Assembly: GCA_002633005.1 (NCBI GenBank)
Contig: NMRA01000254.1
Span: forward strand, 217,722-281,721
Reading direction: 5' to 3'
DNA length: 64,000 nucleotides
Source of the DNA: Phoronis australis
Taxonomy: Eukaryota; Animalia; Phoronida
Each line of letters starts with the position of its first letter. Position 1 is the stretch's first letter. Both the position numbers and the translations under genes were made by a program. The notes beneath the pieces were generated by a model that saw only the letters and a list, made by a program, of their open reading frames with translations, made no database searches and was not told the DNA's origin. Below are positions 1-54,524 of the stretch, piece by piece.

Positions 1-237
1 CTTTGTCTAAAGCTGTTGACATGTTGGCTGTGAAGCAACAATTTGAGTTGATTCAAAATCAACAGCTTTGAACTAGTCAGCATACACATACTTTCCATAA
101 TTATTGCAACTACATCGCAGGGCCCTAGGCCATCCCACTGTACTCGAGGCTCTACTGAAAAATTGGCCCTATCATACAGCAAGCTTTGATTCAACTAAAG
201 TTTCACGAGATGTGATTGGTTAATTTTGTTGTTACAG

Positions 238-993
238 CCATTCTTGCTGGTAAGGATTACAAGATGACGATGAAAGATATATACATTGGTGCCCTCATGC
301 CACCCAGAAGTCAAACTGCGTCAAATATATTCCTGGGTCACGTAAAGAACGTCATCATTGATGGTGTAAAGTATTTCGACGTCGTCGGTGGCTGGCCCAA
401 CATTCCTGGCACCAACATCACTGGTAAACCGCCGAGTCGTCGTGAAACACCGCAGCCATTGAATCCCAGTACGTTCAAAACACCAGAGGCCCATGTGACC
501 CTGACCCAGCTGACTCGGGGAACTCGGTTGGCTCTCATGTTCAAAACCAAAGAACCGAACGGCCTGATCATGTACAACGGTCCAGCTCGTGGCTATGATG
601 ATTTCCTTGCTCTGGAATTGCGGAACGGCAACCTGGTCTATACGTTCAACACAGGCGGAAAAATTTCCATGATTGTTGCACGTACGCGGGCGCCACTTAA
701 TGACGACCAGTGGCATTATGTTGAGATCACGCAGCCAAATGAGTTAAAGACAGTGATGGTGGTGGATGACGCCGTGCAAGAGATTAGGAACTCTGCGTCT
801 GACCCAGATTTCAATTTTGGCGGGAAACTCTACCTTGGTGGAATGCCCGAGGACATGTACGATGAACTGCCAAGCATTCTGGACTCACGTACGGGCTTTA
901 AGGGTTGTTTGGCATCACTGGATCTGGATGGCCGCGTGCCCAACCTGTTCACTGACACGTTGACTAGACACCCGAAAGTGGCTGAGGGATGTG
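238..993 (+). CDS. Exon: end of one LamG/LNS domain plus a complete neurexin LNS5-like LamG domain
   Basis: ttacag|CC acceptor, G|gtaagt donor. [13 protein letters not shown]...[13 protein letters not shown]...[10 protein letters not shown]...LYLGG...[18 protein letters not shown]...EGC parallels neurexin LNS5 (PLNDNQWHNV...LYIGG...GFQGCLASVDLNGRLPDL...RGC). Confidence 0.92.
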
Positions 994-3900
994 GTAAGTT
1001 AGGTTACATGATTCATTTGAAAGGTGTCTTGCGATTTCGTCGAGGTCACATCACGTGATCATGGTAATGTTATCTGACAGTGCTCGCCACTTGTTACAAA
1101 GTACCAAAATGGCTATGTTTTAATGCTGAATTATGGGAGGAAATGGTACATAAACACACAGGATACTACGTCAGGGGACTCCCATCCTTTTTTACTTTTC
1201 CCAGGACGTGTTTCATTGGGTATATCAGCCTGCCACACCTCTGTCAAGTCAAGCCACAAACTATCCGTGCAGTGCATGGGACTGCGCTAATGGCGATAAC
1301 GGTTTCTATGAAATGCTTTTTGGCAACACGTAATAGGTTTCAAAATGTCCTGGACAACAAAATTCAACAAAGTTTCGATGCACAAAACTACGACAAAATA
1401 TCCATTTTATTGTCCGCAAGTGTCTAATTCTGGCTAAATCTCAACAAAATCTCAACAGCTGTTGCTCCAAGCATGTTGCCAAAATAGCAACAAGTTTGAT
1501 GCGTAAGTCCATTCATAAATAAATAATTAATTGCTAGATGCAAAAACGTTACATTAGCTCTTACAAAAGTTCAACAAAACACCATTTTATTGCGCCTAAA
1601 GTTTGACAAAACTGTCAAGTAATTCAAATTGACAGAATCTGGCAAAGTTGTGTCGAAGAGTGTCTAGTTTATTTTGAAAACCGGTGTATTTGTAGACAGG
1701 TGTGTTTTGCTCTTCACGATAGCAATGCAGTGTGCAGTGTTTTAAAGGAATGAATTCGTTGGTTGCAATGCAAAGGGAGGTTGAAATTGATGATCCTACA
1801 TCTGTTGCGCCTGACGAAAGTTGAATTTATTTTGCAGGTAACTTCTGCGATGAGGACACCTGCCTTAACGGTGGTCGTTGTCTGCCGAATGACAAGTGTG
1901 ACTGTTCACTTACCTCCTACACTGGAGAGTTCTGCAGTCAGCGTATGTTTGACCCGTAACGGCTATTAGTTGCTATAAATTGCATCTTGGCGATTTCAAC
2001 AATATTTAGTTGTACTTAACTATCAATTCTTAGAATGTAATCCATCCTGGAAAGTTCATAATCAGAGACATGTTAAATCTGTTCAACTGAACTAGGGTAC
2101 TTAGTAAAAATCCTCAAGCCCTCGGGAGCATCAGGTATCCTACTTGGAATGGTCCTATCTATCGCGAACACAGCAGGAAGCTCCACCTGTCCTGCCTTTC
2201 TAATCATACCACATGACACTCCCGTGGTTTTCACGACAAAGTTAGGCTTCATGTAGGTTTATGTTTTTTGTCTATTTAAAGATGACTAGTGGAAAATAAT
2301 TTTCTCCAATTTTCCAATTCTGTACCACACTACTAACATACCAATCTTTTGAAAAACTAAAGCATTCCACTGTGTTATAATATTAAGTCCTTGAAAACTG
2401 AAAAAGGACAATTTTGGTAAGAATTTTTGTCAGAAATTGATGAGATTCATTAGTGCCCTGTAGCCCTGCTCTGTTCTTGTATTTTAGAGGAGAACGGTTT
2501 CCGTATTGGCGAGCACAACAAGCCAGGGATGTTGAGATACAGGTTCCCAAGTGGGAACTTGCCCTCTTCCACCAAGGACATGGTAGCGTTTGGGTTCATG
2601 ACCTATGACTGCAATGGCGTGCTGTTCCGTGCTGAAAGTGAAGATAAATCAGAGTTTATTGAAGCTCGTCTGGTGGGTCTGACTTTGTAAACTTTTTGAC
2701 TGCATCATTCTGTGGAGTTTGATTTGAAATTTCTGCAAAATTATGTTAATATGTTTTTTTGTGCATATTTTTGGTTTTGGCTGATCAAATGACAGGCCCG
2801 TGAGTGTCAGCTTTCAGCACAATGATTTGTGCACTCAGATTACTTCTAATTTGAGTATGGTACAAGTAATTGAGACCCATAATGTCATGGTAATGTATGC
2901 ACCAAAAGTAATCGCACAATACGCCAATTCTTGTTATGATGTCCAGCCCCGTTTACTGTGAAAATGATACTGATCACGTTTCACTTGGTCAAATTCTAAG
3001 CGATTGTTGAATCCCTTTGCTAACTTGTAAATTTTCGGTCATTTTGTAGCAAGATGCACAACTACTGTAGCGATACATTGGGCTTGCTGTCAGCTGTCAT
3101 GCCAGGAACTGCCAGGTTATTTTGTGCTATTAGTTTTGGGGCAATCAAAGTAGGTGCAGATGTGTTTTCATGATCGATTTCCGCGTCAAAAAATTCTTTT
3201 CTTTATTAGGAAAATGGCGATGTTGTCGTTGAATGGAGGGTTGGTGACACAACATCAAGGATTGTGGAGCGTCGTCAGAGCTTCTGTGATGGCCGCTATC
3301 ATATTTTGCGGTTTGAAAGGGATGGGGCTTTGGCCTCACTATCTGTTGACGACTTGTTGCCCAATGAGAAGATTTCACCAGGTAAGATCAACGTCTAGAA
3401 AATGAAACTGAATTAATGTTATTTTATCTAGGTAATCTAGAAATGATGTAAACTGACACAGCGGAATTTACAGTAATGTAAAACATGGCTGACACTGGCC
3501 ATCTTGCACCATGTCATTTTGTACCCCGTCAAAGTTAACTTCTACACTGTACATGTCTAGTTTTTGCATTGAATATTTTTGAGCAGTAGCAGTCTATCAA
3601 ACCTGCAAGGCTATGAACCCATTTTTCTAATCTTGAGTTTCGAGCTCATGTTTTGTTTCTTTGAAATTGACGTATAGGATAATCTGGAGACAGTATAATG
3701 GGAAACATACAGAGTACAATGACACATTGTTGTATTGTTTGGTTTTCTTTATGCACTATAATCACGTATAGTGATGTGTGTGAGGCTTGTTATTGCTGCC
3801 CTGTGAGTAATTTTAACTTGTTTCATTAACAGATTCAGACAGAACATTCAGCCGCATATCTGTGGCGACGATTGGTGGAAAACAGTCGTCATCAAACATC

Positions 3901-6900
3901 ATTGACAACCCTCTGAACAGCATCATTGCAGGTATGGCCATTGACAATTGTACAAAATCTTGAATAGTCCCAGTGTCTGTGTATTTAGTCTAAAGCATAA
4001 TTGTAATGGAGGAGCGTACTGCTATGTATTAAGATACTGGTATGTAGTTTTATTTGAATTATGGTGACCACTGGTCATTGTTAAGCTGGGATGTTTGCTT
4101 TATTGAAGCTAAACTACTCCGTTTCATCCGTGAGTTCTAGATTTCTGCATTTGTGTAATGTTTTTTTATTTTTTTTTCCACAACTTCGATGAAATTTGTC
4201 AATATTTTTAAAAATCACTGTTCAAGGATCATTAATCAGCAACACTTTCTTCAATGCAGGACTTTACTTCAACGGTAAGGAGATCATAAAACTGGCAGAG
4301 CGCAATGCCCCAGGAACCACCCTCATGAGGGATATTCGCCTGATTCCTCCGCCATTCCGCCTGGATGCACCTACCGTCACGTGAGTACGGAGTACTTTCT
4401 ATGGTTTGAAGTTTTCGGTCTTTCCAGTCTCTAGGGATTAGAATGCCATAATAATTAGGATTGGTAATTACAGAGAGTTTTCAAACTCACTTCAAACTCT
4501 TCTTTACATTTTGATAATGGCATTGGTTTGTTTTAAAGATTTAGGTGACCGAGTCTTACACTGTTTCTGTTTATATGCTTAAACAAGGTTCAGTCAATGA
4601 AAAGCGTTAAGTCTAATAGATAGCTGTGTAAACTTATCGCGTGGTCTTCATTCATTCCAGTCAGACGCCATCCCCGCCTAGAGAAACGTTCTGTGTTGTT
4701 GAACAGGATGGGTCAACATGCCGTAACTATGGCCTCTGTCTCGTTGACTACTGCAACTGTAACTTTACGGCCTATGCGGGACCGTACTGCACAGCAGGTA
4801 AAGAGTTTCTTAGAATATTGTGTCTCTCCTTGCCCTGTCCTCACTTTTCAATGCCAAGTGCTTTGATGCAAACTTCTGTCAATTTTACAGAAATTTTTTG
4901 TTTAAAATTTTTAAATCAAATGGATATTTTGTTTTACAGACAGTTGCATTTGTCTGAGGGGAAACTAAACTGTCATTTGTACAGTGACAGCAGATTTGGA
5001 CAGCTTTCATCGCCTTTGTTACAACCGGAGGAATTGCCTAAGTCTCTATGGCACAGTGAATGACCCTACTCACTCCTATGTGAAACCCAGTAAAATCTCA
5101 TCTCATTGTGTAATGCGTAGTAATATCTGGTGGAAAATTGAGTGATCTTGCCACACTCAAAAGATACGGTACTAGCCTCGTTTCACTGGCACCCATTTAC
5201 ATTTTTCTGCAGCCTGTTACTATTTTTCAGTTATACAGAATACCTTGGTCACACTGTTCAGTGGTCAAATCTAGTTCGAACTTTAAAATCAGCGCTTATG
5301 CACACAACGACATATTAATGGACATTTCGGTTGTCTTTAAATCATTTTCAAGACAAAATTTCACAATATTCCAACCATCTAACACAGATGGAGAACAGAC
5401 TGTACAGGTGCATATCAAAATGCATTGTGAGGGGAGAGACCAGTAATCAAAACAGTTGGAGCTCAAATGAACCAATGTTTCTATTCAGATAGTGCTCAGC
5501 ATGATTCAGCCATATATGCATAGTCTCCTTTATGAGGAACCTGAGTGTGGCATTATCCTTGTCCAAGATATAGACACCAGAGTAATCTAAGTGTGACCAG
5601 TTGTCAATGAATTGTTAAGAACAGCACTGTGTGTGTCTTTACAGTGTTCTTATCAACATCGTAATCAAAGAACACTGTAAAAACACACGCAATTCATTTA
5701 CACTGTCACATTAAGTACGGAACAAAAACTACGCAGTATAAATTACAGCTCCCATCACTGATTATCAATATGTTATTTCAGAACCCTTTGGTTTGTACTT
5801 TGGTCGAAATGGTCAATCAGGCATCGGCCGCGTGATTCTAGATGGTGGTGAGAAAACTAACACAGATAAGGTAGCCATCGGCTTCATGACGCACTACCCT
5901 AATGGCGTCCTCTACAGGGGAAGTAATGAAGATGGACAGTATCTGGAGGTCTCTATGGTGAGTTGATTGTTTCAGTTTTCCCCTAGTGTCTGAGATTCAT
6001 TTTTTGTATGTTGGGATACCTCAACTTTGACGACTGTTAGCTGTGGAAGCCTGGCAGAAATAATGTGTTCGTGTGAAAGAGCTACCAAGCTATTGTTTGA
6101 GGTTATTTTGGACCTTAAAAATGTCCAATTTTTTTACTAACTTCAGAACATTATGTCTCAGAAATGGCTGATTGGATTCTCATGAAACTTGCACATACTA
6201 TGCCTTACGCACTGCTTTCCAACGGCTGTTAGGAATTGTTTTGGAAAATCGGTAAATCTGGGTCCCGTTCCACGAAAACTGACTTAGCTAAGGCAGATCT
6301 TAACTTTCAGTCAATATTAAGATAAGACTTAAATTTGTCGCATGTTCATTTCAAAAAAGAGATCTTATGTTCGACTTAAGTTTTTGACTTCACTTTTGTC
6401 TTAATTTTGACTATCTTATCAGATGTAGAAGTTTCAAAGTTCAGAATTTGAGACAAATCTTAGACTTAAGTAAAAAATGAACTTAAGTCAGTTTCTTGGA
6501 ACGGGTGTTATTATGAAGCTGTTCTGTTGATGCCAGGTAGAATATTCAGTGTTGCAAATAAGCAAATATTATGACTGCAAGAATTCTCTTTTTTTGGGAA
6601 ATTTTACTACACAATTGTGCTGTGCAGTGCTATGTAGTGCTATGTAGTGCTATGTAGTGCTATGCAGTGCTATGCAGTGCTATGCAGTGCTATGTAGTGT
6701 TATGCAGTGCTATGCAGTGCTATGTAGTGCTATGCAGTGCTATGCAGTGCTATGCAGTGCTATGCAGTGCTATGGAGTGCTATGTAGTGCTGTGCAGTGC
6801 TATGCAGTGCTATGCAGTGCTATGCAGTGCTATGCAGTGCTGTGCAGTGCTATGTAGTGCTATGCAGTGCTATGCAGTGCTGTGCAGTGCTATGCAGTGC

Positions 6901-9900
6901 TCTTTATCAACAAGTCTGTGTATTTAACCAACTATCTTAAAACTATAGTGAATTGTAAATGACTGAATATATTTTCTGAAAGAAAAAGTCTATTAACTTT
7001 TACCAATCTGCCATTCATTGAGTCATGTGCTCAGGTATTTTTTGTACACTTTTAAAAGCCAAAAAGAATTATGGAACGCTCATAGCAAAACGACGGTATC
7101 AATAACGTGACCTAATTTCATTTCATGCAGACTCATGTTAAAAGATTTTTTTCAATAAAACTCCATCGTACAGAAGTGAATCAATTTAAAATCGGTTCAC
7201 AACAGTGTTTTGGATAAATGCGCATAAAGAATTGTATGTGAAACTTTGGTATGAATCCAACTAGCCGTTTCCAAGGTATGGCATTCACATGTCAGCCAAA
7301 TTTGAACAATTTTCTAGGGTCCTATGTGACCTTAAAGTTCAAAGGAAATTACCATGGAGTTAGTTCTTGTCTTAACACATAAACTTATTATGAATGATGT
7401 TCTTATAGGTGGATGGTTATGTCGTCAGTAAATATGACCTTGGCTATGGCGAGCAGACGGTGTCGAGCTCCGAGCCTTTCAACGACGGAGAGTATCATGT
7501 GTACCGCTTTCACCGACAGAATGGAAATGTCAAGATACGTCTTGACGACTTCATGCCACAAGTGAGGCGTAGATCAGGTAGGAGATTTCTTTAATTGACT
7601 TCACCCCCCCATATTACTTTCTGTTTTATGCTGGCAAGGAGGTTATGGTTTTCAGGTGCATGTTATTGACATTGTCTCTTGTCAAACATGGATGAAAAAG
7701 TACTTTTGCAGTTATAGTACTTGACGGATGCTGTTTACAAAATGTCATACAAGGGAATTTTTTATTGAATTAGGCAACAAAACGAAGATGGCAATTGAAA
7801 TTTCACAAAAACAGTTATTGTGCTTTTCTCATTTTTTAAGGTCTTCTCATGTTGCAAGTGCCTGTAAGTTTCCAAAATTTTGTACGGTCCGTGGTAGATA
7901 TACAATACTTGAACATGGTAAAGCATTAATTTGGTGCCTTTTGTTTTATATGAAGAGAAGAGATAATTAAATTTCTGGAATGGGACTCTAGCCTCTAGGG
8001 TCTTACATGGGTCTCGCATTTTGAGAACCATTTTTTTCTGCTCAAGAACAAGCATCAAACTTAAAATCCAGGACCCCTGACTACTATCCATAGTAGTAGG
8101 CTGTTACTCTTGTTACACAGAATTTTTTACCATCTTTTTAGGTATTGTCTTGCTCAAACCCCAGACATCCTTCAATGTTGGTGCTCAGGATTACATAAGA
8201 GGGCGCTACATTAAGAGGTTCAACGGCATCTTGGGAGGTCAGTTATTTGTCAGGATTTTGTTGTGTTGTTAATTGTAGTCATGTGTGAGGAAATGGGGTG
8301 TGGATTAAGGTCCCAGCCCACATAATCGAAATCACTAACTTCAAACACTAGTTGGCATCAGCGAACCGTCACCATGAACTGATCAGGGAACTCCATTTGG
8401 GCTTTGGTGTTGTGCGTAATTAGGTCAAGACTTACTTGCCATAATGAAGAACTAATTGAAACAAAGGGTTCCTCTAAAGATGGTGCTGCATTTGGCTTCA
8501 AATCCAGTCGAAATATGGTTTTGCTCAGGTTTACGTTGTGAATTTGACAGACTACATTTTCACCACAACAGTGGCTATTGATTACAAATTCAGTGTTAGC
8601 TAATTACTGAAGTCAAGTCTTAACGATTTCTTGGACCACCGTTCTGGTGTTTTCCAGGTGGTCATTTTGAAATGCTTTTTGTACGTTATTATTCTTATTG
8701 AGTTTCGTCATCCTGTCTTGTAGTTCTTAATCTTGTCCTGTTCTTTGCATGTGTTTGTCTCGACTGTTAATGTCAATCAACCAATTCCTGCAGGGGTCAA
8801 CTACAACAACCAGTACATCCTAGACAACAGAAACATCGTCAAGGATGGCGACGTCACTATTGCTACGCATAAATTCAAGCTAGTGGACATTCCAAGTAAG
8901 TTAGGTCATCCAATGAACTCGTTATTCAAGAATTTTGGACCCTGAAATGGCTGCCGGAAATTTATGTCCCAGGGCTGTTTTGTTCAGAGTACTGCAGAGA
9001 GTGTCGTATCAGGGTTTTCTGCAGTTTAAAACAAAATTGATATCAGAGTGCAGTATCAACGTTTTGATATTAGGCAAATATCCTGAGGTACAAGAGTTGT
9101 ACCATTGTACACGAGGCTGATTTTTGCCTGATATTGAAATGTCGTTCGTGCTACACTCTAGCGCTGTTGTCAACTTCCCGCTTCCAATTTGGCCCAAAAA
9201 AATGAATGTTATTTTTCGCAATTTATTAATTAGCAGTTTATGAAGTTAGTTATCAGGTCTGAATACCGTTTATGGTCAAGTAATTATCAGTTGTAGCATT
9301 TTGTTCTCATAAACAACCCAGTGTCAGGTTTACAAGAACCTACCTATCACTGTCTCAATTATGACCAAGTGTGATGTTTCCTAAAACAGAACACGTTCTA
9401 GATTTTGAGCCCAGTGTACTCTGAGTAACACTAAGAATCCCCACTATCCTTTAAGGATGAATTTTATGCCCAAAATCGAAATTCAAAGTTTTGTTGAGAA
9501 ATTCAGAAACGTGTGTTACGGTGTGTGTTGCTGCTTTGATTTAGTGAATGTACGCAGACCATCACTAAGAAGTGTTCAGGTTTCCTAATATTACATTTTG
9601 CTCTATCTCAATTGTATTTGGATACCTGTGCCCGGTTGCATGAAACAGTCCCAAATAGGGACTCAACTAAGGTACCTAACTCTTTTGCGAATTTGTTTCC
9701 GTCTTTACTCACAAATGTGGCTCAGGTGTTTGGTGCAATGGACCCAGCCATGAGGCCTGCACACGTCTTATGCACCACAAATGACATCAGACCACTTGCA
9801 CTGTTTTTTTTTTTACTAATTTTGATATCTTTATTATCAGCTCCTCTTTGACTTATGACATTTTCTAATAAAACAATTAAGAACTGAGGCCTTATTTCAG

Positions 9901-12900
9901 TCAAAATAAATAGGGACTTAGTCCTTAAATTTGGGGCGTTTCATAAATGACCCCTACATATTTACAGTAATATTGAGAATTCAATGTTGAATTCACTCTC
10001 GATTTGTATTGAAGCCAAATATTGTCTTCGTAATGAGACTCAAACAGAACACAAAAGAACGATCAATGTTTTCACAAGTCCACAAATATGCAGTAGATTT
10101 AGGAAACTTAGTCGAGTCCCTGTTTGGGAGTGTTTCATACAACTGGGCAATGTATATCTCAATGCCTTTAACATATCATGCAGTTCTAATACAATGTCAC
10201 TGTTACCAGTTGTCATCACAAACTGATAGTTTGCTGTATTACATACCACACTGTATTTGACTTCGAAAAACTATGGCCCTCACAAGGTACAAAATCCTTG
10301 ATCACACATATTCTGAGGAGCGTTTTTGGGAGCACATGACCTCACGTGCTCCTTTTATTACATGGTAATATCCTCTATAGATTTGAGCACAAACTTGCCG
10401 CATTCACAGTGTTATGGCCTTCAGTGGATTTTGTGTAAAATCACTTTCGAGGACTTCACAACCATGTTGATTGTTTGCAGAGACATTCTGTACGGAGGAT
10501 GGAGCTGACGGCAAACTGTGTAGACATGGCGGCATTTGTGTGAATGGCGAGTATTGTGACTGTTCCAAGACCTCGTACATTGGACCTTACTGCAATAACT
10601 GTAAGTAGCTGTGTCGGACAGGGTCTGAGCTCTACTGTTTGCGAGTTGGGGTACCCTTACTGTGGACGACTTTCAGTGATAGAGATCAGGCATTGATAGC
10701 TGTAGGACACCATCTGGGTTGAATCCACTGAGCAACAATTTGTTTGCTGGCACATGGTTTTTGATGCCTGAAGTACATTATACTTTTCACGTGCTGTCTT
10801 TATTCCTGACATTGAACCATGTAATGTGCTCTTTGATGATCCGGAGATAATAATCTATGTTGATCATTGTGCTTAATTTGTTACTGAATGATGTCCTTCA
10901 CTTTGATTGGACAGTTAGTCAGTAGATTTGACACCGGTCAGGAAACTTTGTTCTATCAGCTGGACGCAGTGAACAAGTGGACATATTGAAATGAAACATG
11001 ATAAGACATTTTGGATAGCAATTGATTAGAATCTGCTGTGTGGTCAGGCATGCTGTTTGCAAGTTGTGTTGAATTACATCTCACAAAACTGGTGGTGTGG
11101 TGCACAAATCTGTGGTCGTAATGAGATGGGTTCAGTCGCATCACAAGATTTTGTAAAAGTACCGTATGCTGTTGGTGACTAGGAAGGTTGTCGAGTTTCC
11201 TTTGTTTTCACTGGCTTTGAGCATTTCACGTTTTCATCAATTGAGACAATCTGCAATAATTATGCCTTTACATTTAGGTTGATAAAAAGTTTGGCATTGT
11301 TCACTTAGGCAACTATGGTGTTGGTGCACAACAGGAAATTGAGAAATCTAACATACGGTCACATTGGTACTAATCTTAGACCAATGTTGGCTGTCACATA
11401 TCGAAACACCGTTTCACCTTGTCTGATCTCATTCCAGACGATGTTGGTTATCGTTACAACACCACTTCTCGTAACAACATCATCAAGTTTGTCTACGCAG
11501 AGCCAAAGTCTGAGTCAATCGACGAGCTGACGTTTGGTTTCATGACTTACGACGAGGACGGCACATTGGTCAGAATTGACAACCAAGATGGCAGCCAGTA
11601 TATGGAGTTCCGCCTCGTAAGTCAAAAAGTCACATGTGTTGCAGTTTAATATTAAAACTGCATGTCAACCTGTTTAGATGATTGAATCAAAGTGGGTATC
11701 ATGATATTTATTATCATGAAAGAACTTTATTTGCCAACTAAGTCGCAGGCATTGTGTACATGCTGCTTTGTGTAATGGAAAAGGCTGCATTTTTCTTTGA
11801 ACATTTTCATTCACACCATTTTTGTTACTTGGTGCCCATCAAAGATTGGTCAACTCATTTTAGGTTAAAAATATGATTGGAATTGATTTTGTTAAATGTT
11901 CATACCTGGTGGTTAAATATTTTCTCAGGTGGGAGGTCAGTTGTGGCTGTATTACAACATGGGGAATGGTGAACAGAAGATTCGGGTCTCGTCCACAATC
12001 TACTCAGATGGCGCCTACCGACAAGTTCGTTTGATACGCGACCGTGGGACCCTGCGGGTTCTCGTCGGTGGTAAAGAGGTGTATTCTGGTGTGATACCGG
12101 GAATGGCTGTCGGCGGCAGATTCCGTGACCAACATGTCATTAGCCTGGGAGCTCATGAACTCCGAAATGGGCAACTGATTCGACCATTTGATGGCATCTT
12201 GGCGGGTAAGTATAACTGTTGAATTATCGTAGTGTCACACGTTAGCGCCATTCTCGAAATTGTGCTGCATGAAAGCCAATTAAAAACACGGTGATTAAAC
12301 AGCTCCGGGTCTCAAATAATCAAGGGCAGAAATTCTATGGCTGCTGTTCACTGTTTTACTTGATAGTCTAGTGCCTACGTCTAACTGAATACAAGTTACC
12401 AAAACGTGTGGAAATCAAGGAATAGATGCGTTGAAAGCCTTAAAAAATAAGTGACATGAATGTTCAAAACAATCTAAAATCATATCAAATATGCCATGCA
12501 GTTGGTAACTACAGTCAACTGCAGGTGAACATTGGGTCTGCAAAAGCGACCTTGTGCTGGTTTGGAATAAGCTCTGGGTCAAAAAATAAGTGATCAGGCT
12601 TTTGTGATAAAAGTGGCTTTACTGACCATGAGCAGACGCTTGTGAACTTTGTTTCACCCAAGTACAATGCTTTATAGTGCTTTATAGACTCAACTCAATC
12701 TCTGTCACAATAAACATTTAAAAATAAAAAATAAGCTTTCATTTGAATTTTCGAAGTTGGAAATGTTTTAATACTGCCGACTCAGTGAATACACTGTGGC
12801 CTTTATTATGGTGGGCATGACTGACTCACATGTGAGGCCACTGTAAACCCTCCCGGTACATCAATTACTCAGGGATATCTGGATTTGGGAAGAACTGACA

Positions 12901-15900
12901 TATATTTATTTTATGCAAGGACTGTGAAGCCTTCAGTTGTTTCCAAACCCAAAAATCACCTCTCACTGGGTGAAGAACAAGACATTTGAGATCAGGGGCC
13001 CGTTTCAAGAAAAGTAACTTAGCTAAGACAAATTTTAAGTTTCAGTCAATTTTAAGATAAAACTTAAATTTGTCTCAAGGCCATTTCAAGAACAAGATCT
13101 TGAATTCGACTTAATTTTTTACTTAAGTTTTGTCTTAATGTTGACTACCGGATGTGGAAGTTTCAAAGTTTGAAAGTTGAGACAAATCTGAAAGCCCTTT
13201 CATACTAGCGTCGACGCGTCGATGTTTTGGGGAGTTGCGGTCAGTATGAACAGATAACTTTGGTCTTGGATCGAAGTTAACTGTGTCAATTAATGTCGCT
13301 GTTAACAGGTGCATTTAACACTGGAGTGTCGACGCTGCAGTGCAGTATGAATGGTCCACTTTGGTCCCATTCAAGTTATCGCCAGTTGCCAGTGTTATCG
13401 TCAACAATTAATTTAAAAAGGGTAGTGTTGTCGCTAATATTTTTTAAATTTTTTTTATTTTTGCAGAAAAAACCTATTTACAAAAACATATATACAAAGC
13501 AAGTGTGCACACGTAGTCACAAATAACAACACTAAATACCAAGTATGATAGGTACAGAGATTCTAAATAAAATATGCAAGATCTTTCCACTTAGTTTTGT
13601 GTCGCTCCAACTCAAAGTTTTGTTTACAAATCAAGTAATCAACTTTACAATAACCTATGGTATAAACTCGTAAATTATCAAAAATAGGTACAGCTTCCTT
13701 AAATGTCACCCTATATAAAAACATTTTCGTTTATCAAAATATGATATCATATACGAACAAACTTCTATTGCGAAAACCTAACAAAACCTCTTTTGCGGAA
13801 ATATTTATATTGTGAAAAATCTGAGCCAAAGTAGTAATTTGGTCCACAAAATTTTAACATATCTACACTCTCAGAACAAAATGTACAATTGATTCTGGGA
13901 CTTCGCAGCAAAAAGAACATAGATTTGAGTTAACAATACCATTTTTGAGAAAACATTTTGTTGGAAGAATGTTATGTACAATTTATAATTAAACCACCTC
14001 ATTTTTGTATCAGCATACCATTGGTTTTGGGTATTTTCTTCTGTCACTGCTTAATAATTGTTTTGCAGAAAGCCTTGTGGAAACCTTTTATTTATCATAA
14101 TTGTCTGGCATTACATTTAGGTGTTTACTACAATGGTTTGAGGTTGACACAGTTGGCAAAAGCAGACGCATCTGGCATCACGAAGGTCGGCGGAGGTCAA
14201 AGTCTCTATGTCATCAGCCCATTTTACCTTGACAGGCCGGTCATGTATGTAACTTACTCTGTTTCATTATGATTGAGGGCAGCCTACTGCCAGTTACTGA
14301 TGGACTACAATGAGGCAGTGTGGCCTAGTGGGTTGATTGTCTGCCTCCTGTTCACACAGTTGTAGGTTCGAATCCCACTGAAGCACACTCCTAGAACTGG
14401 AGTCAGATCTTTAGCTTCTAAATACAGAAAATTGAGTCAAATACTGGAATTAGCTTACTTGAGTTAGCGACGTTTTGTCCATCTCTGAGGGACTTCAGCT
14501 TGGTTAGTGGTGTTGTTATCGTTGTGGCCAATAGGTGGCGTTTTAACCAGGGAATGCATTAAACCACCACCTATTGGCCAGAACGATAATAACACCACTA
14601 ACCTAGCTAGAGTAATCAAATTCCATTTTTGTACTCAATTTTTATGCGCCCACATATTTATATGTGGTCGCATTTTGCCGTCATCTTTGTCTGGGCGTCT
14701 GGGGCTGTATCTCCTAAACCCCTAGCAGGATCTTATTGAAATTTGACAGATATGTTCCTATGTGGTTGACGACAGAGGGCGACGAGTTTCAGACTGACCC
14801 GAATACCGCTGTGCCCCCTAGTGGCAATTTTAGTTTTTTACATTTGCCTCTGTATCTTCAAAGGTCCTCAACCGATTTTCATGAAATTTGGCACATAGGC
14901 ATGTATTAATGAGTTGACGCTATTCTCCCGTTTTCGGATGGATTCGAGACATTTTGCGCCATCTAGTGGTCATTTTTACCATTTTCGAGTCGTTTTTTTG
15001 GCGTCCGCCCCTCTAACAACCAAACCACTCTAAGGATGATTGTGAAAATTGGCATGTATGTTTGTACTATGATGAAGACAGTTGACAATGATTTTCCAAC
15101 GACTGCGATTACAGTGGCACCTCCTAGTGGCAGTTTTGTTTGTTTTTGTACCCATGGCTGTATCACCTAAACATTCTACAGGATCTTTATCAAATGTAGC
15201 AAATGTATTTATTTGAAGTTGACTACGGACGACGGCAACTTTTGGACAGATCAGTGTACCGGTGTGCCCCCTAGTGGCAATTTCAGTTTTTTACGTTTAC
15301 CTCTGTATCTTCAAAGGCCCTCAACGAATTTCTATAAAATTTGACACATAAACATCTTTTAGTGAGATGACGCTATCTTTCTGTTTTTGGATTGATTCGA
15401 CATAGTTTGCGCCACCTAGTGGCCATTTTTCTGTGTTTTGTTACCTCAGCTGGATGACTCAAACTTTTCTTCCTTTTATCTGTAGCTTCTCAGCTTGGTC
15501 TTAATTTGTGCAATGCGCATCGGACAGCCTGCATTATTGTTTTGTTTCGCTGACTTGCATTGATTTTGTAACCTGTAGAATTATCAAACTTGATAGCGTA
15601 ATAATTAGATTTCTCCCCTAAATGTTATATTTCAAAGGAAGAGCGATAAAACCTGGATGTACTATAATAGACAAAAATTTGTAAAATATCGTTTGTCAAA
15701 ATTTTCAACAAAATAGAATTTCCTAAAATTTTCTTTGATTCTGATCGCACTGTACATGTATGTTATAGCCATTACCAAAACATTAGTTCAGTTAAATATG
15801 AAATTTCTGCGATTTAAACTAAGCATCTGAAGAACATAACAAAGTCATTGCTATGAAATATATTTTTGTCTCAAACTGAAGACTATTTGCTGTAAATATG

Positions 15901-18900
15901 ACAGCTATTGTTTAAAGTAGTCCCAGAGTCTTTAAAGCCATTATGATATCAAGTTTGTGTTAATAACATGTTTTAATTACAAAATAGGTTATTGCTATTC
16001 TGACAAGAATGCATGCCATACTTGTTGTTGCGGTCTGTCTTCTTTTAATTTCACTTTCTTAGCGTTTCTGATTGGTCTGTTATCTCTGTGGTTTCGGTTA
16101 ATAAGAAACTGTCAATTCCGAATTCAGTTGTCTTCATACGTTCACGAGAACTGACATTTCATAACTTAAGTTAGCCTCGATATGTCAGTGATTTGTTGCA
16201 AACCATAGCATCTTGATGAAGTTGCTGAGCTTACAGAAATTACTTTTGAATCATGATACATTCAATAGCAGTATGCTCTACATGCGGTAAATAGTCAGAC
16301 AAAATGATCTGGTATAATTACATATTGACGTCTAAATGCTAATGGAATTTCTTGTCAACGGCTGAGTGCAAGTCGCATTCACCTAGTTCATAGTTGTAAT
16401 AGTCACCTCTCGTTACCAGCCATGGCAAGGAAATGGGATTTTTCTCGGTTACAGTGCATGGCAAAAGTAATAGAGTGAGACAAAATGACATGTCCCATTT
16501 ACCTACCTCACTAGCTTTTCCGTTAATTCCTTTTCATTCTTGATCATGAAGTAAGGCCTCTCTGACGATGAATTGGACTTTTGCCCAGCCACCATGACAA
16601 GGAATTCTGGGTCGTTTCGCCTGAATATTTTTGGCATGTACTGTATGTACAGTATTTACTGTCAGTACAATATGTTATTACGCTCACAACATGATAGTAG
16701 TTGTATTAGAATTCTCAATGCTCACTACATCTCAACGGACACGCTTCTCGCTTCTTTCCGCTGGCTTTCTTTGCTCTCTGCTCTCTCTCTTCTAAATTCA
16801 TGATGTCTTTTGCTTCATCACGCTGTACTTACTATTTGAACATTCCTCGCACACTAATTCCATTAGAAAATAAATTTACATAGTCGTTATATTTGCACTA
16901 AACTCCCTGACGAGTATTATTTCCATACAAGTCTGCTTTTCAATCTTAATTGACAAGATTTAGCTTCCCATTATATTAAAGTCTTAAACTATGTGAATAA
17001 TTTGTAAAAATACAATGTTTTGTCATAATTCCTGACACAGATTGCTAGTGCAATACAATGAAGTTCTGAGGAAAAACGTGTAAAAAGCATACGACACAGT
17101 CTGACTCAGAAGTGAAATGTCTACAAATTTACTTCATTGTTTCCACCGTGTATTTTGAGCCAATGCAGTATTGCGGTAACTCTTAGTTTTAAAAATAGAA
17201 ATGTGGCTATCACAGCTACTTACAGTGTTCGCCCTACTCTTCCAAAAGATGAAGTCCGGTGGACCCACCTTCCAAAAGCTGAAGTCCGGTGGATTCACCT
17301 TCCAAAAGCTGAAGTCCGGTGGACTCACCTTCCAATATTTTTAGCTCCATTTGATTTTTGGGGTCCATGAAACTTAGTAACGGAATTTCTTTAAAAAAAC
17401 TCTCGCAAAGTATGAGCTTTTATTTTTCATAATATTTGTCTGTTTGGACACCATTTTTGCACTTATGTTATTGAGTCTCTACCCTATTGGACTGACTGTA
17501 ACAGGATAGTCTGACCTAAACTGTGATGACCTACTTACGGAGCAACGATGTCATGCATTTGGCTTCGAAAAATGAAACAATCTAATGGTGCTGTTATGTG
17601 AACAAAGAAAAGAACAAAATAATTTTCATTTGTTTTTAGTTTTATTTATCACAATCTTTGAACAAGAAGTTGCTTCCAAGGGAATGCACTCATCAAGTCA
17701 ATTTGCGTCAAATGACACAAAAACGCAACCTGGGGCGAACACTGTACTTATTTCACAAGTTGAAGAATTGTTACCATATTACTGACTGTCAAATAAATAA
17801 TCTTTTCCAACGTGATGTATTTGCAGCAGCTACTGCATTACTTTAAACTCTATATTTTTCCTCTGAGCTTCAAAGATCAACAGTCCCCCCCTAATAGTTT
17901 TAACTTTTTGATTGCCTAGGTTGCTTGTTAGTAAGGATATAGTTGGATAGACAGGGCACTTCTGGAACCCCAAAGCCAAACAAAGGAAATGATAATTCTA
18001 TGAGTAAAAAATTCACAATTCTTTATCGCTCACGTATTGTTTGTCCTAAAAAGTGAAACATAGTACAAATGAGTCAGTAGCAGTCTGTAAAGGTAGTCAG
18101 CTGGAAAGTTGCTAGTAGCATTACATAATATTATGTAATGTTGCCACGCCAACTTTCAGCTTGCCACCAATTGCTCCTATTCTTCCACCCAGTAAGAAAC
18201 CTGTAGCCGGTGGTGTTATGGGTGGCGGCGGCGCAGCATGGAACCCTGTCGTTGGAGCTGGAGGCGCTGGTGGAGAGGTCATGGGTCTGGCTAGTGGTGC
18301 TGGTGGAGCTGGCATGGGCGGTGTTGGTGCTGCTGTGGCGCCAGCAGCGGCAGGAGTTGGCGGTGGTGCTGCCGCTGGTGTCGCAGTCGCGTCCATACTA
18401 GCTCTTCTCATGCTGATCAGCTCACTCATCTGGGCCATCTACAAGTGTAAGCCCGGACTGATCCCATGTTGTGGAACCGGAGCCGCGGCTGGCGCCCCTG
18501 TTGCTGGAGCAGCTAGCTATCCCCTTCTGAAAGGAGGCGTCTTTGGGGCCAGCGCTGCAGGAGCTGGAGTAGGAGCAGGTTAGTGAATGGCACCCTGTCT
18601 GCGCGTATGACAGGAAGTACTCCACATTTTAAAGGCATACAGGATATGAGTTGTATTTGTATTTTTAAAAATAAGTAGTTATTGGTATTGTAAGGATGAA
18701 GTGTGAACTTGCCTTAAAAAACTTCATGCTGAAGTGTGTTAAATTGAGCTATTAAAAGTATTTGCTAATAGCTGGTAACAGAAGGGACGTGTATGAGCCA
18801 GGGGCATTTTGTTCAAGAATAAAATAAACTTCATTTTCTTTCTTTCATAAAAACGTAGGATTCAGTAAAACCAGTAAACAGTCTTAAATCCATTAACGAT

Positions 18901-21900
18901 GTGTGACCTCTGTGAGGCAGTCAATTCACTACAAAATTTGCGTGCTATGAGACCTTCGTATAAGTCTACTATTTTTGTAGGTGCTGGCATGGCCGGTGCC
19001 GGTGCAGGAGCAGGTGGTATGGCTGGTGCTGGTGCTGGCGGTATGGCCGGTGCAGCTGGCGCTGGAATGGCGGTAGGAAGCGGCGCAGGTCTGGCTGTCA
19101 ACGGCATGGCTGGTGGTGGTGGAATCGGTGGCGGTGCTGGATACTCGCAATTTTCAGCCAGCACCATCAACAGGCAAACGGTCTATGACGCTGCTGATGG
19201 CTCAATGGTGGATGGTGGAATGATGATGGGAGAGGGTAGGTACTAGGGACTTGTGGGTAAATGGGAGAGGGTAGGTAGTAGGGACTTGTGGGTAAATGGG
19301 AGAGGGTAAGTACTAGGGACTTGTGGGTAAATGGGAGAGGGTAGGTAGTAGGGACTTGTGGGTAAATGGGAGAGGGTAGGTAGTAGGGACTTGTGGGTAA
19401 ATGGGAGAGGGTAGGTACTAGGGACTTGTGGGTAAATGGGAGAGGGTAGGTACTAGGGACTTGTGGGTAAATGGGAGAGGGTAGGTACTAGGGACTTGTC
19501 GGTAAATGGAAAATCTTGATGCTTGTCCCATGGTATAATCTTTAACCCAAGGTTTTAAACAACAATTGCATAAAATTTAAGAATGGTCTGATGTCATTGG
19601 TAACTGAATCTTTGGTGTGTGCAGACACGATACTGTACTTAAGAGATTATTGTTGGATATATTTTCTCATGTAATAGTTATTGAGTGATATCTGTTATGT
19701 AATGTTTCTCTTATGATGTCTGCTAATAATGCAGGATCTGTTGACGTCATTGGCTACCATTTGCAGGTGGCAACATCTACGACTCTAGCACACTGGCTCA
19801 CTCTCAGTACAATACGTCCAGCTACAGTGGTGGCGGTGGCACCATGGGTGGCACCATGGGTGGCACTGGCCGAGGAAACACCATGACCTCTGGCTTCCGC
19901 ACCATGTCAGAGAGTGCCAGCAATTACGGCGGCAGTGGCATGGGTGGTGGTGGCACATTCATCGAAGGCTATGGTAACACGATGGGACACAATGCACAGG
20001 TGCATAATTATTCAACCTCCTCGTCGGTGCATAATTACATGACGGAGTCACGCCAGTTTGGAACTATGGGCGGTGCCAGCACCATGGGGGATTCTACGCA
20101 ATTCTTGGGATTCGGCGGCTCTGTGTCCATGCCGTTCATCACGCTGAACGAGGATGTCAAGGTTGACTGTTGTCTCCTAACTGCCGATGGACGTCACGTG
20201 GTGACAGGCTCCTGTACTGGACCTCCCCAAGTGTGGAACATGGCGGTTGGTATTTAATTTTGAATTCATGTTGTCAGTGTTAGCTTTTATATTTTACTTA
20301 TAACTCTTTCACTGCTAGGTTTCCTAGAACTGCATTTACCAAATTTTGGAGAAACGTAGATAATGCGGTGCAATCAGTAACATGTATCAGCGGTGAAACA
20401 GAATAAGATTTGGTTGACATACATGTCTAGTCTGACATTTCATTCTTGTAAAAGCAAAATTGTTTTGAATCTGAGACAAAGTATGTGCGGTTAACAGTCT
20501 CGGGAGGCCTGTATGTCAATCACAGTTCTGTATGTCAATCACAGTTCGACAGGTAAGTAATCGACAGAAATTTTTAAAAAAAACGTGGAAAATTATTTTC
20601 ATTCAGGATTTGGTAAAAATGCCTTACTATGTATGACGATGTTGTTATACTAATTATCTCACGGGAAGTTTAGGGTTGATGAGGCAAAGAATGGGCAGGT
20701 ACTCAAGTCACCAAATGGCACATTTGGCTGTAAAAAAGTTAATACAAATAATTGAAAATGACATTTTCTTAAAGCAAATTCAGTCACTGTTGCAATATCA
20801 AAACATTTTAGGCACTGCCTTCACATATATACTTAATACATGCATTCAAATTCATGACTTTTCTGTTGGAATAACCTAGCAAGAGAAGAGTTAACATTCA
20901 CAAGCTCTGGTAGAAGAGTTTTCATCAGGTCTCCAAGAAATGAGACTCATCTTCAATTTCCCCCATATGTCGCATATTCTCTCACTTCTAGGAACACCCA
21001 TATGTCTACCTCTCTCCTGTGCAATTAGTCTTCAAGTATAGATATCGGGGATAATTCTAGCTCTTGCTTTCAACATGGTTGGCATTTTTTCTTTGTGGCC
21101 TGGTATAAATGTTGCCACGGATTTGTCGGCGCAGCTACACCCTAAAACTGACACGGTCCGTAGCTATGGAATTTCTGGTCTTTTCCTGGTATTCACCTGG
21201 TACGTTTCCAATTTTCTAGAATGGAGAACTTGTGACTGTGATGGCTGGTGATGACATGAACTCTACCGACCTTCACCTTGCACTAAATGACTCTCTGTTG
21301 GTGGGTCAAGTGAGTACAGAACAGACGAGTCTGGACATGTCTGATGTACAGGCGAGCAACAGGGTACCACTGAGGAAGCTACAGGTGGGTCGTTTGTTCT
21401 TTGACATTAAACATGGCAAATACCTGCATTCACTAACATTCTTGTTTTGATAGTTCCCAAATGCTGTGTCATGTCCAATATTCCCATGCAAAACACTAAG
21501 TCTAATCTCAATATTTGAATCTGGACTTGAAAGTAATTTTCACATTTTCCGTTCTATGTTAAAACATTGTTAAGAAAAGAGTGTTTTTTTGTTCTCAAGT
21601 ACGCTATGGTTTACGCAGACGAATTTCTAGTCCCAACTTCACACTTCTTGACCCCTAGATTGGAGTTGCAAACTTGAGTAAAAACTAGAGATTTCATGTT
21701 CAGACTCGAACTTATAACTTTAATGCTGGTGTCGTCAAGTGTAAACTAAGATTAGACAGTTGGTCATCCATGTTAACCACTGTGTGTTGCAGCTCAAAGA
21801 AAAGTTGTTCTGAGTTCACACATCAAAGGTAGAATGAAAAATGTCAAATAACAATTTCGAGTTTTAGTCCGATCCCAAATTGAAAATAAATTGCCTCTAA

Positions 21901-24900
21901 TTTGAAACCTAACTTTTCTTATGGCAAGTTCTTTAGTGTCACAAGATCCAGGGTTTGTAAAAAGCTACTACTAACTTTAAGATCAGTCGACACTGTCATA
22001 AGTAACATATTATATATTTTTTTCATGTTAAGCCAAATTCAGAACCACCTTCGATGAAAATTTGTGTTCTTTTTGGAATACATCTTAAAAGTATTTTTGC
22101 AGTCTGTAGTGAATTAGTCAGTTCCTAATTTCACAGTTAAACCTCTTGGAATAATACGGAGAATCATTGATTACTGCTGGGGCTAGATTCACTGTCATAA
22201 CTTTGAGTTATTTTAGTTTCAAATGGCCGATTATAACTCTGACTTAAATATATCTTTTTCAGTGAGGCGTGGGAATATGTTAGGAACATTTTGTGCCATC
22301 AGCACGCCATCTGTTCGGTCACATCAAGTGTCCTAATGAATATATAAGTTCGAAAAGATTTTTGCCCCCAAATGGGACTTCTGCTAACCGTGCAGACGCT
22401 CTAGCCACTGAGCCATCGGGACCACTGGTCAAAGAGAAATCCAGTGACACTTAGTAGTGGGCATCTTACCCTAGATTAAGGGTAAGATGCTCACTACTAA
22501 GTCTTATTGGATTTCTGTGTTTGACTAGTGGTCCCCTGCATGGTTAGCAGAAGGTCCTGGGTTAGAGTCCCGTTCGGGGGCAAAAATCTTTTCGGACTTA
22601 TGTTCATTAGGACATGTGATGTGACCAAAAAGATTATGTGCTGATGGGTAAAAAATGTTTGCAACTCTGATGACTTAATGCAACTATTATCACTGCACAA
22701 GGCTTTAGATTTTAAAAGTGTCCTAAATCAGGTGCAAATTTTAAGGAAAGAAGTCCTAGAATGTGTTACTACCCCAATTTATTCCTATGCATCTGTTATC
22801 ACTGATTTTTCAGATATGGGACTTTGAAAGCGGTCAGCCATTGGAAATGGCCGATGGTCAAATGTGTTCTGCCATAGCCATGATGTCTGATGGACGACGC
22901 GTGGTGCTGGGACGAACAGACAAGTTTGGAAATGCCACTCACGTGACCATTTATGATCTCATGGGAAACGAGACATTACGTGATATTAGGTAATGATTGA
23001 ACTGTCTAATGGTATTAATTTTGGTACTACCTAAATTATTACTATAGAAATTGCAGGAGGGATCTGTTTTCACAGTTAGTGTTGTGGTGAGTTTATTTTT
23101 AATTCAAGTAGACTAGTTTTTTGGTTTGATTTAGCTGTTTTTCATGTACTTGATTTTAGCATTTTACGTGCAGATTTTTCATTTCCGAAAGAAAAAAGTA
23201 TGCTGTTCAAAAAATTGATTTTTGTCACCCACACAAAATATCTGAACACACTAGGAAACATTTTTCTGTGTTAAGTGGAAGTATTATTTGTACATGCCAA
23301 GTTTTGGTCACCATGTAGTTGCCATTGGCAACTACTGTATTCTCGCGTAATAAATGTTATATCTGTACATGGCGCAGGTACGACGGAGGTGTTGGGATCG
23401 CTGACAGCGTCACGTGTCTCCATCTGTCACCTGATGACAGGTATGTCATCGCTGGCTTCAACAACTCGTATGACGGGAATGCCAATTTTGTCGTCTTCGA
23501 TCTCAGTGTTAGTGACCACATCGCTGTCGACCCCAAGATTATCGCTCTTGATGCCGAGCCTCAGTGTACAGCTATCTTGGACACTCACGAAGCTGTGACT
23601 GGTACGTGTTGCAAGGTTCTGTAGCAGTGTGATCCTTTTCGGGAATTGCAACTTTCTCTCGTTCAGTGGCCATGCCAGACAGCAGCAAAGCTGTTGTTCT
23701 CGATTTCCTTCATATGGTAAACCATTTTCTTGTAAGACTATCGAAGACAATTAGTTAAAGCTGAATGAGAGAAATTTTTAATGATTTGTTAAAGCAAATT
23801 TAAGAAACTCAGTGCCACACTTTATAACAGTCTGCTTGAATATGATTGTGTGAAGTCTTCTAGAAAAAGGTTATGTAAGCACCCTTAATGCTCATTGTTT
23901 TTCATTGCCTAGCATCTTGCAAATGCTTGGCATCACTAAGTATGGCCTACACTACTTCTTTTACGTTTGAGTCCCACATAAAAATTGCTGTGGACTCGAG
24001 ACTTCTCATAATGGCTGCATTTTTCCCAGTGGTTGCCTTGCCAACTATGTTTCTTATACTTCTTTCATGTCATTGCAGGCACTCGCAAGGGAGAGCTGGT
24101 AATCTGGAGCCTGCGGACCGGCAAGCCTCTACGCCAGCTCATCGGCAACACCGGGGGGACCATGACCTTGAACCGTGTTTCCGCGCTGAGCGCTCACTCA
24201 GCTGAGATAAAGGACCTTACACTGTCCAAGGATGGCCGAATATTGGTGTCAGCGTCTGCAGACGGCACGCTGAGGTCATGGTCAATGGACACAGAGAAAC
24301 TAATGCACACTCTGTCTGGACATAAGGATGAAGTAAGAATTATTGTCTCACTCGAATCTACTCTCTTGTTCCCCACTCCCCCCTCCCCTCTATCCTGTGC
24401 TCTCTGCTCACCATCCCTGCCACCCTCTCTGGTTACCTCCTTCCAGCCTCCCTACATTTCTCCTCCCTCACTCCCTCCCCCCTCCCTCCAGCTCTTCCTC
24501 TGACTCTTCTCTCCATTCTCCCCTCCTCTCCTAAATTAAGATATTACCGATTTCATTCTTTTTACAAAAATAATTTAATTTTGAAGTTTCACAAATTAAT
24601 GAAGTTTCACCGGTAGCTTTAACTGTAACATGGTTGTACTGTTGTTACTTGGCACTGATGAATATAGTATTTTTGTCATAAATATTGTCACACCCCACAA
24701 TACAAACATCATTTCACCATGTTCTACTTAACGCGTGTCATATGTCTTCCGTTATTTTCTTTTTCCCTGTCTTACTTTGGTAATTTCACGCCTATTTGTG
24801 TGTGTGTGTGTGTGTGTGTTTGTGTGAATGACTGTGTGGATGTACAACACTACAATCATTGGTCTCAAATTTAAATTATTTCTTGCCATGTGTAGGTTTG

Positions 24901-53000: not shown

Positions 53001-53099
53001 CGACTCTTTTACGCTCGACCCCACCTTGCCGAGAGGTGTCGCGTTAACCTGTGAAGAAGGTGAGAAACGACACAGCGCCGTCAGTGGTTCATCTGCAGA

Positions 53100-53370
53100 G
53101 TGAATGCCGCTATATTGCGGTGCATCGTTCCCACTTGTCCGAACTATGAAGCTGGGAAGAAAGCGCGTATATCATTTTTTCGAATTTCTCGAGAGCTCGA
53201 AATTCTTAGGAAGTGGCTCGCGATAATGGAGAATGAAAAGTACCACGCTGTTAATAGCAAGTATGAGGCAGTGAAACGTCTCCGTGTCTGTCAGAGAAAT
53301 CACTGTCGGACAGTGATTTCTCTGACGAATTCGGTCTTACCAAAGAACTATCCATACGTTCCGTTGCCGG
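53100..53370 (+). pseudogene. Degenerate THAP zinc-finger coding fragment (DNA transposon remnant, possibly Kolobok or P-like)
   Basis: CIVPTC...ISFFRI...RKWL...RVCQRNH follows THAP C-x-V-P-x-C/F/W/VC-x-x-H spacing; apparent frameshift after the His; ttaa-ag possible element start at ~52935. Confidence 0.55.
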
Positions 53371-54524
53371 TGAATGTTCACGGCGCCTCTCTAGTATTTC
53401 TTGATCAGTGTATTCCGGTTCGAACTGATAGCCTGTGAAACCTAACGATCAGACCCGTGAAATCTTCCTCGGAGGAGCTCTCGACTAAATGGGGATTGGC
53501 GCCGGGCGAGTTGCCACGTAGACGATTATTATTCTTCGAAATGCTTCAAAATGAATTATTCACACCCTAACCAATGCTTATATAAAACTGAACCAAAGTC
53601 TGTCTCATTAGATACAATATGTTATGCTTTTGGAATATTCGTGAGTGCAAATGTTTTGAGAAGCCAGCAATTATAGCTGCGTTACCGGGTTTAGATGCAA
53701 TAAAAGTAGTTGACAGGGCACCGAGGCCGTGTGAGCGCATGCTAATTCAGTGTTTGCTGAATGAAAGCTGCTGTGAAAGAGTAACTAGATTTTGTATGCT
53801 ATGGTCACATGCTGAAGGGGAATCTTTATTTAAATATACAAATACATTATTCAAATCATTGTTACTGTATAACCTTTGCCCTGACGCTTCTGTTCGTGGA
53901 AGGGGAACCTGATTTCGCGGCCCCCGACAAGTGAGTAAGTAGATTTTCAGTTTCGTGGTTAGTTCACCTAAATAATTACGTGCACATTATTTCTTTGACT
54001 CAGTATTATTGTCTTTTCGTTACTGCAGGTTTAGTTTCCAACTTAAGCTGGTTTATGTAAAGTGATGTAAAGTCCCGGCGGCCGCGACGGGCCTGATCGG
54101 GTTCCGAGACAGTGGCGGGGAATAACAAGCGTTTTGTGTGCTTAGAACTGAAAAAGCGCAAGTCTAAAAGTACAACACACAGCTCACGGAAGAAGGATTC
54201 GAATTTATCACCAAACAGACCCAACATGCTATGAACATTCCCACTAAATAAAATTGGTTCTAACCCCGGTGTTTAAGGTAAACGGCGGGGTATGGAAAAT
54301 TGAACTAGACCGTATTTATACACCTTGGCTGAGACGCGCTCGGCTCATGCTCAAAGGGATGCCGCCAAGCTGCTCTATTCATCGAGTCACGAGCGAGGAT
54401 AATTGACTTCGCTCATGCGGATATGATCAGCTGATTACAGTCTAGCCTAACAACTGTACTTTTTATGGAGAGAATTTTACGTAGTTTTTACTGTAATATT
54501 TGAAAAGAGGAGCGAAAACAAATA

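Follow-up and report, generated by a model that had tools for sequence, protein, structure and literature searches.

Triplication of the EGF-LNS6 unit in a likely PHRED-1-type gene of Phoronis australis

The window analyzed here is a 64-kb stretch of Phoronis australis contig NMRA01000254.1. It carries, on the plus strand, part of a gene that is likely of the PHRED-1 type, in which a neurexin-like ectodomain is probably joined to an intracellular WD40 propeller; the 5′ half of the gene lies upstream of the window. Triplication of the EGF-LNS6 unit in this gene was confirmed. The family itself is known, although little studied, and the tripled LNS6 is what is new.

The exon model comprises 23 exons, running from position 238 to a stop at 25135 on the plus strand, with AG/GT at every intron and without an internal stop, and yields a predicted protein of 1664 residues in a single open frame (with the acceptor used by the reads, 18193). 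The first exon (238..993) encodes the C-terminal part of LNS4 followed by a complete LNS5; it aligns to NRXN1-alpha 770-1013 as one stretch, and reads splice into 238 from an exon outside the window, so that the gene extends upstream. Three cassettes follow, each consisting of an EGF and an LNS6-like domain: cassette A (1838..4380; exons 1838-1942, 2488-2672, 3210-3381, 3833-3931, and 4260-4380), cassette B (4661..8895; exons 4661-4797, 5782-5957, 7409-7577, 8142-8237, and 8794-8895), and cassette C (10481..14244; exons 10481-10600, 11438-11616, 11929-12205, and 14121-14244). A first-pass annotation had placed three EGF-LamG cassettes here, and they do lie in one reading frame with AG/GT at all splice sites. 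A Gly/Ala stalk and a transmembrane helix are encoded by exon 18193..18578, as indicated by an RNA joint, hydropathy, and a sequence motif. The in-frame model continues with a Gly/Met/Ala-rich cytoplasmic linker of about 250 residues (18981..20152, comprising exon 18981-19235 and the start of exon 19767-20245) and a WD40 domain of 384 residues (20153..25135), which occupies the end of exon 19767-20245 and exons 21220-21384, 22814-22989, 23378-23601, 24079-24332, and 24896-25135, the last one containing the stop. All of these features are on the plus strand.

Several lines of evidence assign the three LamG domains to the LNS6 class. In a tree of the LamG domains of the window and LNS1-6 of two arthropod neurexins (P0001 and P0002), A, B, and C group with neurexin LNS6 (support 99/97), and the domain of exon 238-993 groups with LNS5 (96/95). 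A split of the three among different LNS classes, which the annotation had named as evidence against its proposal, did not occur. In PDB searches, a profile made from the first LNS exon of each cassette gave 20 matches, 19 of which were neurexin LNS6/beta chains, and with a profile of the second exons 19 neurexin chains ranked above laminin, pikachurin, and agrin. None of these PDB matches was CASPR, EYS, or crumbs, and the comparison domains in the tree were neurexin LNS1-6. Ten other proteins, with window sequences excluded, were used to build an LNS6 profile; it gave scores of 166.5 bits for A, 112.1 for B, and 113.9 for C, and no more than 54.6 bits for any other LNS domain.

The internal organization of the cassettes is also shared. 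The three motifs that had been noted as common to them (D-x-x-x-[FI]GFMT, DGxY[HR]xxR, and G[LV]x[FY]N) are all present in A, B, and C, with GFMT not being specific to the copies, as several relatives and one neurexin also carry it. Common intron positions were likewise found as described: a phase-1 intron follows each EGF, a phase-0 intron follows EARL/EVSM/EFRL, and a second phase-1 intron precedes GxxYN/FN. One further phase-1 intron is common to A (3382-3832) and B (7578-8141) and absent from C. It coincides with an insert of about 20 residues in P0001, a location which we take to be the neurexin splice-site-4 position; no insert was seen at 3382-3832 or 7578-8141 in the RNA reads. The C-terminal Cys pair is missing in all three domains, as had been observed, with two mid-domain Cys in A and none in B and C, while LNS5 of the same gene keeps both of its C-terminal Cys.

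RNA evidence was taken from three raw RNA-seq runs of one study and one contig set presumed to be RNA, mapped on window positions 1-6200 and 6920-19260. Between exon 238-993 and the transmembrane exon, all 15 junctions are RNA-supported on the plus strand. Eleven of them, including every joint of cassette A, are seen as GT..AG joints, each raw-read run giving 2-28 reads; the B1-B2 junction comes from a loose-end consensus, and B3-B4, C_EGF-C1, and C1-C23 come from one 1464-letter contig. First mates lie on the minus strand, which fits plus-strand RNA in most stranded libraries. The joint 14244->18193 has 11-27 reads per run and one contig, and acceptor 18160 for the transmembrane exon was rejected, since the reads use 18193. 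The segment 18160-18192 thus offers an in-frame upstream acceptor that would add 11 Pro-rich stalk residues if used; the listed joint is at 18193. No additional exon between 14244 and the transmembrane exon was found by script or in the reads.

Sequence differences in the exons also bear on the cassettes. Among the differences listed, 27 cassette variants comprise 23 silent and 4 replacement changes (two sharing one codon), against a chance expectation of 23% silent (p 9e-12). There are 6 silent and 1 replacement changes in B and 11 silent and 3 replacement changes in C, and the cassettes, B and C included, are under strong purifying selection.

The copies are old. Pairwise identity among A, B, and C is 25-29%, and DNA-level likeness is confined to a single 52-nucleotide stretch between EGF A and EGF C. 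The two ends of each cassette differ in phase (outer phases 1->2 in A, 2->1 in B, and 1->2 in C), so that a plain exon-block copy would break the frame unless splice sites shifted. Skipping of B and C together, or of A and B together, preserves the frame, whereas loss of one cassette breaks it. No cassette-skipping joint or loose end was present among those listed, where a skip from A to the transmembrane exon would span both mapped stretches.

Trees of LNS6 domains, with the two neurexins as outgroup and P0058 left out on account of its broken domain, place A, B, and C among PHRED-type LNS6 modules and apart from the neurexins (98/99 and 100/99). The EGF domains provide a further character: the C3-C4 loop has 5, 4, and 5 residues in A, B, and C, compared with 8-10 in all 10 comparators, which favors one common, lineage-specific ancestor of the copies. 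The C1-C2 loop is long in B and C (8 and 9 residues vs 4). Cassette A is likely the original copy, because it follows LNS5 and is closest to the relatives. Intragenic duplication had been proposed as the source of the three domains, and their LNS6 class, by tree, PDB profiles, and LNS6 profile, agrees with this; it is the most likely origin of the copies, and we infer that it took place within the lineage.

With regard to the ligand site, D137, V154, I236, and N238 are described in PMC2570956 as forming a Ca2+ site on which neuroligin binding depends and as conserved in the bee. It was also reported, in PMC4183798, that neuroligin and dystroglycan binding is blocked when the matching Asp or the Leu/Ile/Asn trio is mutated. 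Positions were transferred to the present gene through P0002 aligned to NRXN1. D137 and N238 correspond to Glu (at 2652) and Ser (3850) in A, Gln (5937) and Lys (8156) in B, and Gln (11596) and Arg (12124) in C, and neither side-chain Ca2+ ligand is retained unchanged in any copy. At L234/I236, A has Asp/Thr, B has Ile/Leu, and C has Gly/Arg, the hot spots thus being replaced in A and C; the V154 position is Met in C, likewise in arthropod neurexins. Among PHRED-type relatives, 8 of 10 have Asp or Glu at D137 and Asn or Asp at N238, and both neurexins have Asp and Asn. In view of the changes at D137/N238, a multivalent neuroligin receptor is unlikely.

The membrane-proximal and intracellular parts resemble those of PHRED-1-type relatives. 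Hydropathy places the transmembrane helix at about 18383-18445, and its exon ends in a motif derived here, WA-x-Y-x-x-KPG (WA-x-[YW]-x-x-KPG across the family), which is found in 11 of 12 relatives examined and in neither of the two neurexins. The stalk between the end of C and the helix has about 65 residues here, compared with about 105-130 in P0005, P0012, and P0018; a shorter unstructured stalk fits folded units assuming part of a spacer role. The cytoplasmic part has about 640 residues and the C-terminus ...SRSRRH, whereas the two arthropod neurexins end in ...KEWYV, and the distance from the transmembrane motif to the C-terminus, 637 residues, falls among those of relatives (480-698). 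The linker exon 18981-19235 has same-strand RNA depth, and the matching region of the relative P0004 is predicted to be disordered. At 19021, in the Gly/Ala-rich linker, a six-base length polymorphism exists between runs. A 35-nucleotide tandem repeat of 8 copies (19226-19509) begins within the end of this coding exon and copies its donor; the frame stays open with the first donor only.

The WD40 domain is recognized by the Pfam WD40 family. Most full-length relatives share 48-59% identity with it over most of its length; the most divergent ones share 33-44%, and generic WD40 proteins at most 27% over that length. In the model of P0004, the predicted local distance difference test score is mostly >90 across the domain, which contains 31 strands, and the top fold matches include the eight-bladed Tako8 and ODA16. 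The intracellular part is therefore predicted from the model to contain a complete eight-bladed propeller and not three WD repeats.

Further features lie in the introns and in the remainder of the window. Intronic dispersed repeats at 9392-10215, 12688-13511, and 14336-15571 have heavy read depth from other loci, that of the last being strongly strand-biased. A 10-nucleotide tandem array of 28 copies lies in an intron of cassette B (6617-6901), nested inverted repeats at 22289-22654 resemble a small non-autonomous DNA transposon, and an assembly gap of 357 bases is located at about 54520-54880. A Pfam search of the 136 open frames of at least 62 residues beyond 25200 gave only two matches, CXC (TCR) at 31697-31945 and THAP at 53064-53435, both on the plus strand; these isolated fragments are likely transposon remnants.

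PHRED-1 of Schmidtea mediterranea is described in bioRxiv 10.1101/131789 as a 2536-residue muscle-surface protein with 6 LamG and 9 EGF domains, a transmembrane segment, and WD40, required for muscle fibre patterning. The same text states that the family is confined to lophotrochozoans and mentions follistatin domains in homologues of parasitic flatworms. A search with the WD40 relative P0003 found 14 family members, 8 of them carrying LamG, among the best 120 of 266 matches, and a search of 50% representatives with P0004 gave 7 that align in one long stretch among 150 matches listed. The named members are from Helobdella and from Aplysia, Mya, Sinanodonta, Mizuhopecten, Candidula, Tegillarca, Ylistrum, and Owenia; in the latter eight, LamG, the same transmembrane motif, and the same WD40 occur in one chain. 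Altogether, 11 relative clusters combine LamG, a transmembrane segment, and WD40 in a single chain. None of the matches listed for P0003 and P0004 was labelled planarian; the P0003 search covered proteins of up to 2000 residues, and the planarian protein is longer. Within the same size limit, a homologue search with the LNS5 exon found only the 2 arthropod neurexins among 866 candidates, and one with WD40 exon 23379-23600 found only 1 among 35. In the ESM Atlas, P0003 matched generic WD40 clusters only and P0012 gave no usable match, and a metagenome scan yielded 64 loci, one of them a strong match (L001, 48%, E 4e-24). In WD40 trees, one of two being a quick tree, the domain of the window lies outside the mollusc clade and outside the Helobdella clade, in an unresolved base with Owenia and other sequences.

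The number of LNS6 modules was compared among 15 relatives, one of which (P0009) starts at the LNS6 end; the other 14 form 11 clusters. The comparison, which the annotation had suggested, sets the present gene apart for the most part: each of the 11 clusters has one terminal LNS6-class domain, and it is single in 10 of them, while P0218 may hold two. The terminal LNS6 is broken in Tegillarca and weak in P0218. In P0218, a partial sequence, residues 1-48, directly before its EGF, have the character of an LNS6 end (11.3 bits) and do not fit an LNS5 end (-2.2), and an independent LNS6 duplication may have given this protein two LNS6 units. Other forms of expansion were also observed. P0145 (Owenia fusiformis CAH1790210.1), with 3736 residues, has about five tandem LNS5 copies and one truncated copy. 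Additional lectin-fold (Laminin_G_3) repeats form a block between its LNS1 and LNS2, and the regions concerned are residues 1743-2706 and about 260-1100. In P0164 (Ylistrum balloti XP_060080039.1), repetition of an upstream block has given nine LamG domains (residues 53-1400). Expansion of the ectodomain, as in the Owenia LNS5 repeats, the Ylistrum block, and the flatworm follistatin domains, thus recurs, and the triplication described here is one form of it.

Taken together, the reading that we consider somewhat better than evenly supported is a neurexin-derived ectodomain that ends in three EGF-LNS6 units and is followed by a transmembrane helix, probably in one protein with WD40, in which the two extra units likely serve as a folded spacer. 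Since B and C are without neurexin's Ca2+-binding residues, they likely lengthen the receptor and do not provide extra neuroligin sites. As a folded spacer, they would hold a conserved head, LNS1 to LNS6 of cassette A, further from the membrane, where it would bind the matrix or a neighboring cell. The WD40 propeller, in place of a PDZ tail, would signal, anchor, or couple to the cytoskeleton. By analogy to planarian PHRED-1, the receptor would sit on muscle cells and may have a role there.

Several observations weigh against this reading. The LNS6 trees do not unite A, B, and C as a clade, although such a clade is not rejected either (approximately unbiased test, p-AU 0.081 and 0.076). Cassette A carries Ser at N238, so the presumed head may not bind Ca2+ either. 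Gln also occupies D137 in P0132 and P0218, where the terminal LNS6 position is single and intact, and losing D137 alone thus does not imply a spacer. The strong purifying selection on B and C is as compatible with binding as with a spacer. No RNA joint was observed for the seven junctions downstream of 18578, with RNA mapped to 19260. Finally, orthology to planarian PHRED-1 rests on its published description.

The main rival, which we hold to be a serious possibility with perhaps a minor share of the likelihood, is that B and C are neofunctionalised Ca2+-independent binders, for example of sulfated glycans via basic surfaces or of new partners. The selection just mentioned agrees with it, as does the replacement of N238 by Lys in B and Arg in C; laminin-type LNS domains bind sulfated glycans via basic surfaces, according to PMC4183798. 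However, B and C are further from the family consensus than A (112-114 vs 166 bits), and no conserved B- or C-specific motif was identified.

It is improbable that the LamG/transmembrane exons and the WD40 exons are two adjacent genes or separate isoforms, their fusion being an artefact of the model. The missing joints after 18578, the 35-nucleotide repeat that starts at the end of exon 18981-19235, and the occurrence of several database relatives as WD40-only records speak for such an artefact. Against it, the model has no stop between the transmembrane helix and WD40, with compatible phases throughout, and the 11 clusters have all three parts in one chain; moreover, several of these WD40-only entries fall in a 90% cluster together with a full-length form or come from contigs too short for it. 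We infer from frame, splice sites, and homology that the two sets of exons belong to one transcript. The annotation's own reading, an alpha-neurexin with three neuroligin/LRRTM-binding LNS6 modules and hence a multivalent ectodomain, draws on the LNS6 class of all three domains, their lack of the C-terminal disulfide, and the Met that C keeps at V154, but it is hardly tenable given the substitutions at D137/N238 in every copy and at L234/I236 in A and C, positions required for Ca2+/neuroligin according to PMC2570956 and PMC4183798, the absence of a PDZ-type C-terminus, and the tree position of the modules, which fall with PHRED-type LNS6 and not with the two neurexins (100/99).

A broader proposal, which we regard as speculative and rather improbable, is that PHRED-1 is an ancient bilaterian sister family of neurexin, present here in an animal outside Lophotrochozoa, with an ectodomain that would be adjusted in length lineage by lineage and would serve as a ruler of the distance between cells or between cell and matrix. 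It is suggested by the position of the WD40 domain outside the mollusc and Helobdella clades and would involve independent LNS duplications, namely LNS6 threefold here, LNS5 fivefold in Owenia, and the upstream block in Ylistrum. If true, it would contradict the published claim of a lophotrochozoan-only family.

No report of an LNS6 triplication was found among the papers listed for PHRED-1 (other spiralians included), neurexin/WD40, or invertebrate LNS6 duplication, although the published domain maps of 14 PHRED-1 homologues may already show repeated EGF-LamG units, and one functional study of PHRED-1 was found. The present gene shows domain by domain that the PHRED-1-type ectodomain derives from alpha-neurexin, and different lineages have extended it by duplicating different LNS units. 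It also offers a natural test of the role of LNS6 after loss of the Ca2+/neuroligin site, for which in-frame deletions are possible (A to the transmembrane exon, or LNS5 to C).

Among known systems, alpha-neurexin (NRXN1; arthropod Nrx-1, P0001 and P0002) shares with the present gene the order LNS4-LNS5-EGF3-LNS6, the transmembrane helix, and an LNS6 without the C-terminal disulfide. However, it has one LNS6 with intact D137/N238 and a short tail ending in KEWYV, whereas in the Phoronis gene LNS6 occurs as three degenerate copies and the cytoplasmic part, of about 640 residues, includes WD40. The earlier description of the gene as an ordinary alpha-neurexin is thus not borne out, given the cytoplasmic linker of about 250 residues with WD40, the C-terminus SRSRRH, and the PHRED-1 architecture. 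PHRED-1 is likewise single-pass, with LamG and EGF outside and WD40 inside, and the mollusc and annelid PHRED-1-type proteins have the same transmembrane-end motif and mostly 48-59% WD40 identity. Compared with these relatives, the present gene has three terminal EGF-LNS6 units instead of one (as in 10 of 11 clusters), a shortened EGF loop, and loss of the Ca2+-site residues in B and C. Owenia P0145 and Ylistrum P0164 also have a PHRED-1-type ectodomain lengthened by internal LNS duplication, but they repeat LNS5 and an upstream block, respectively, and retain a single LNS6.

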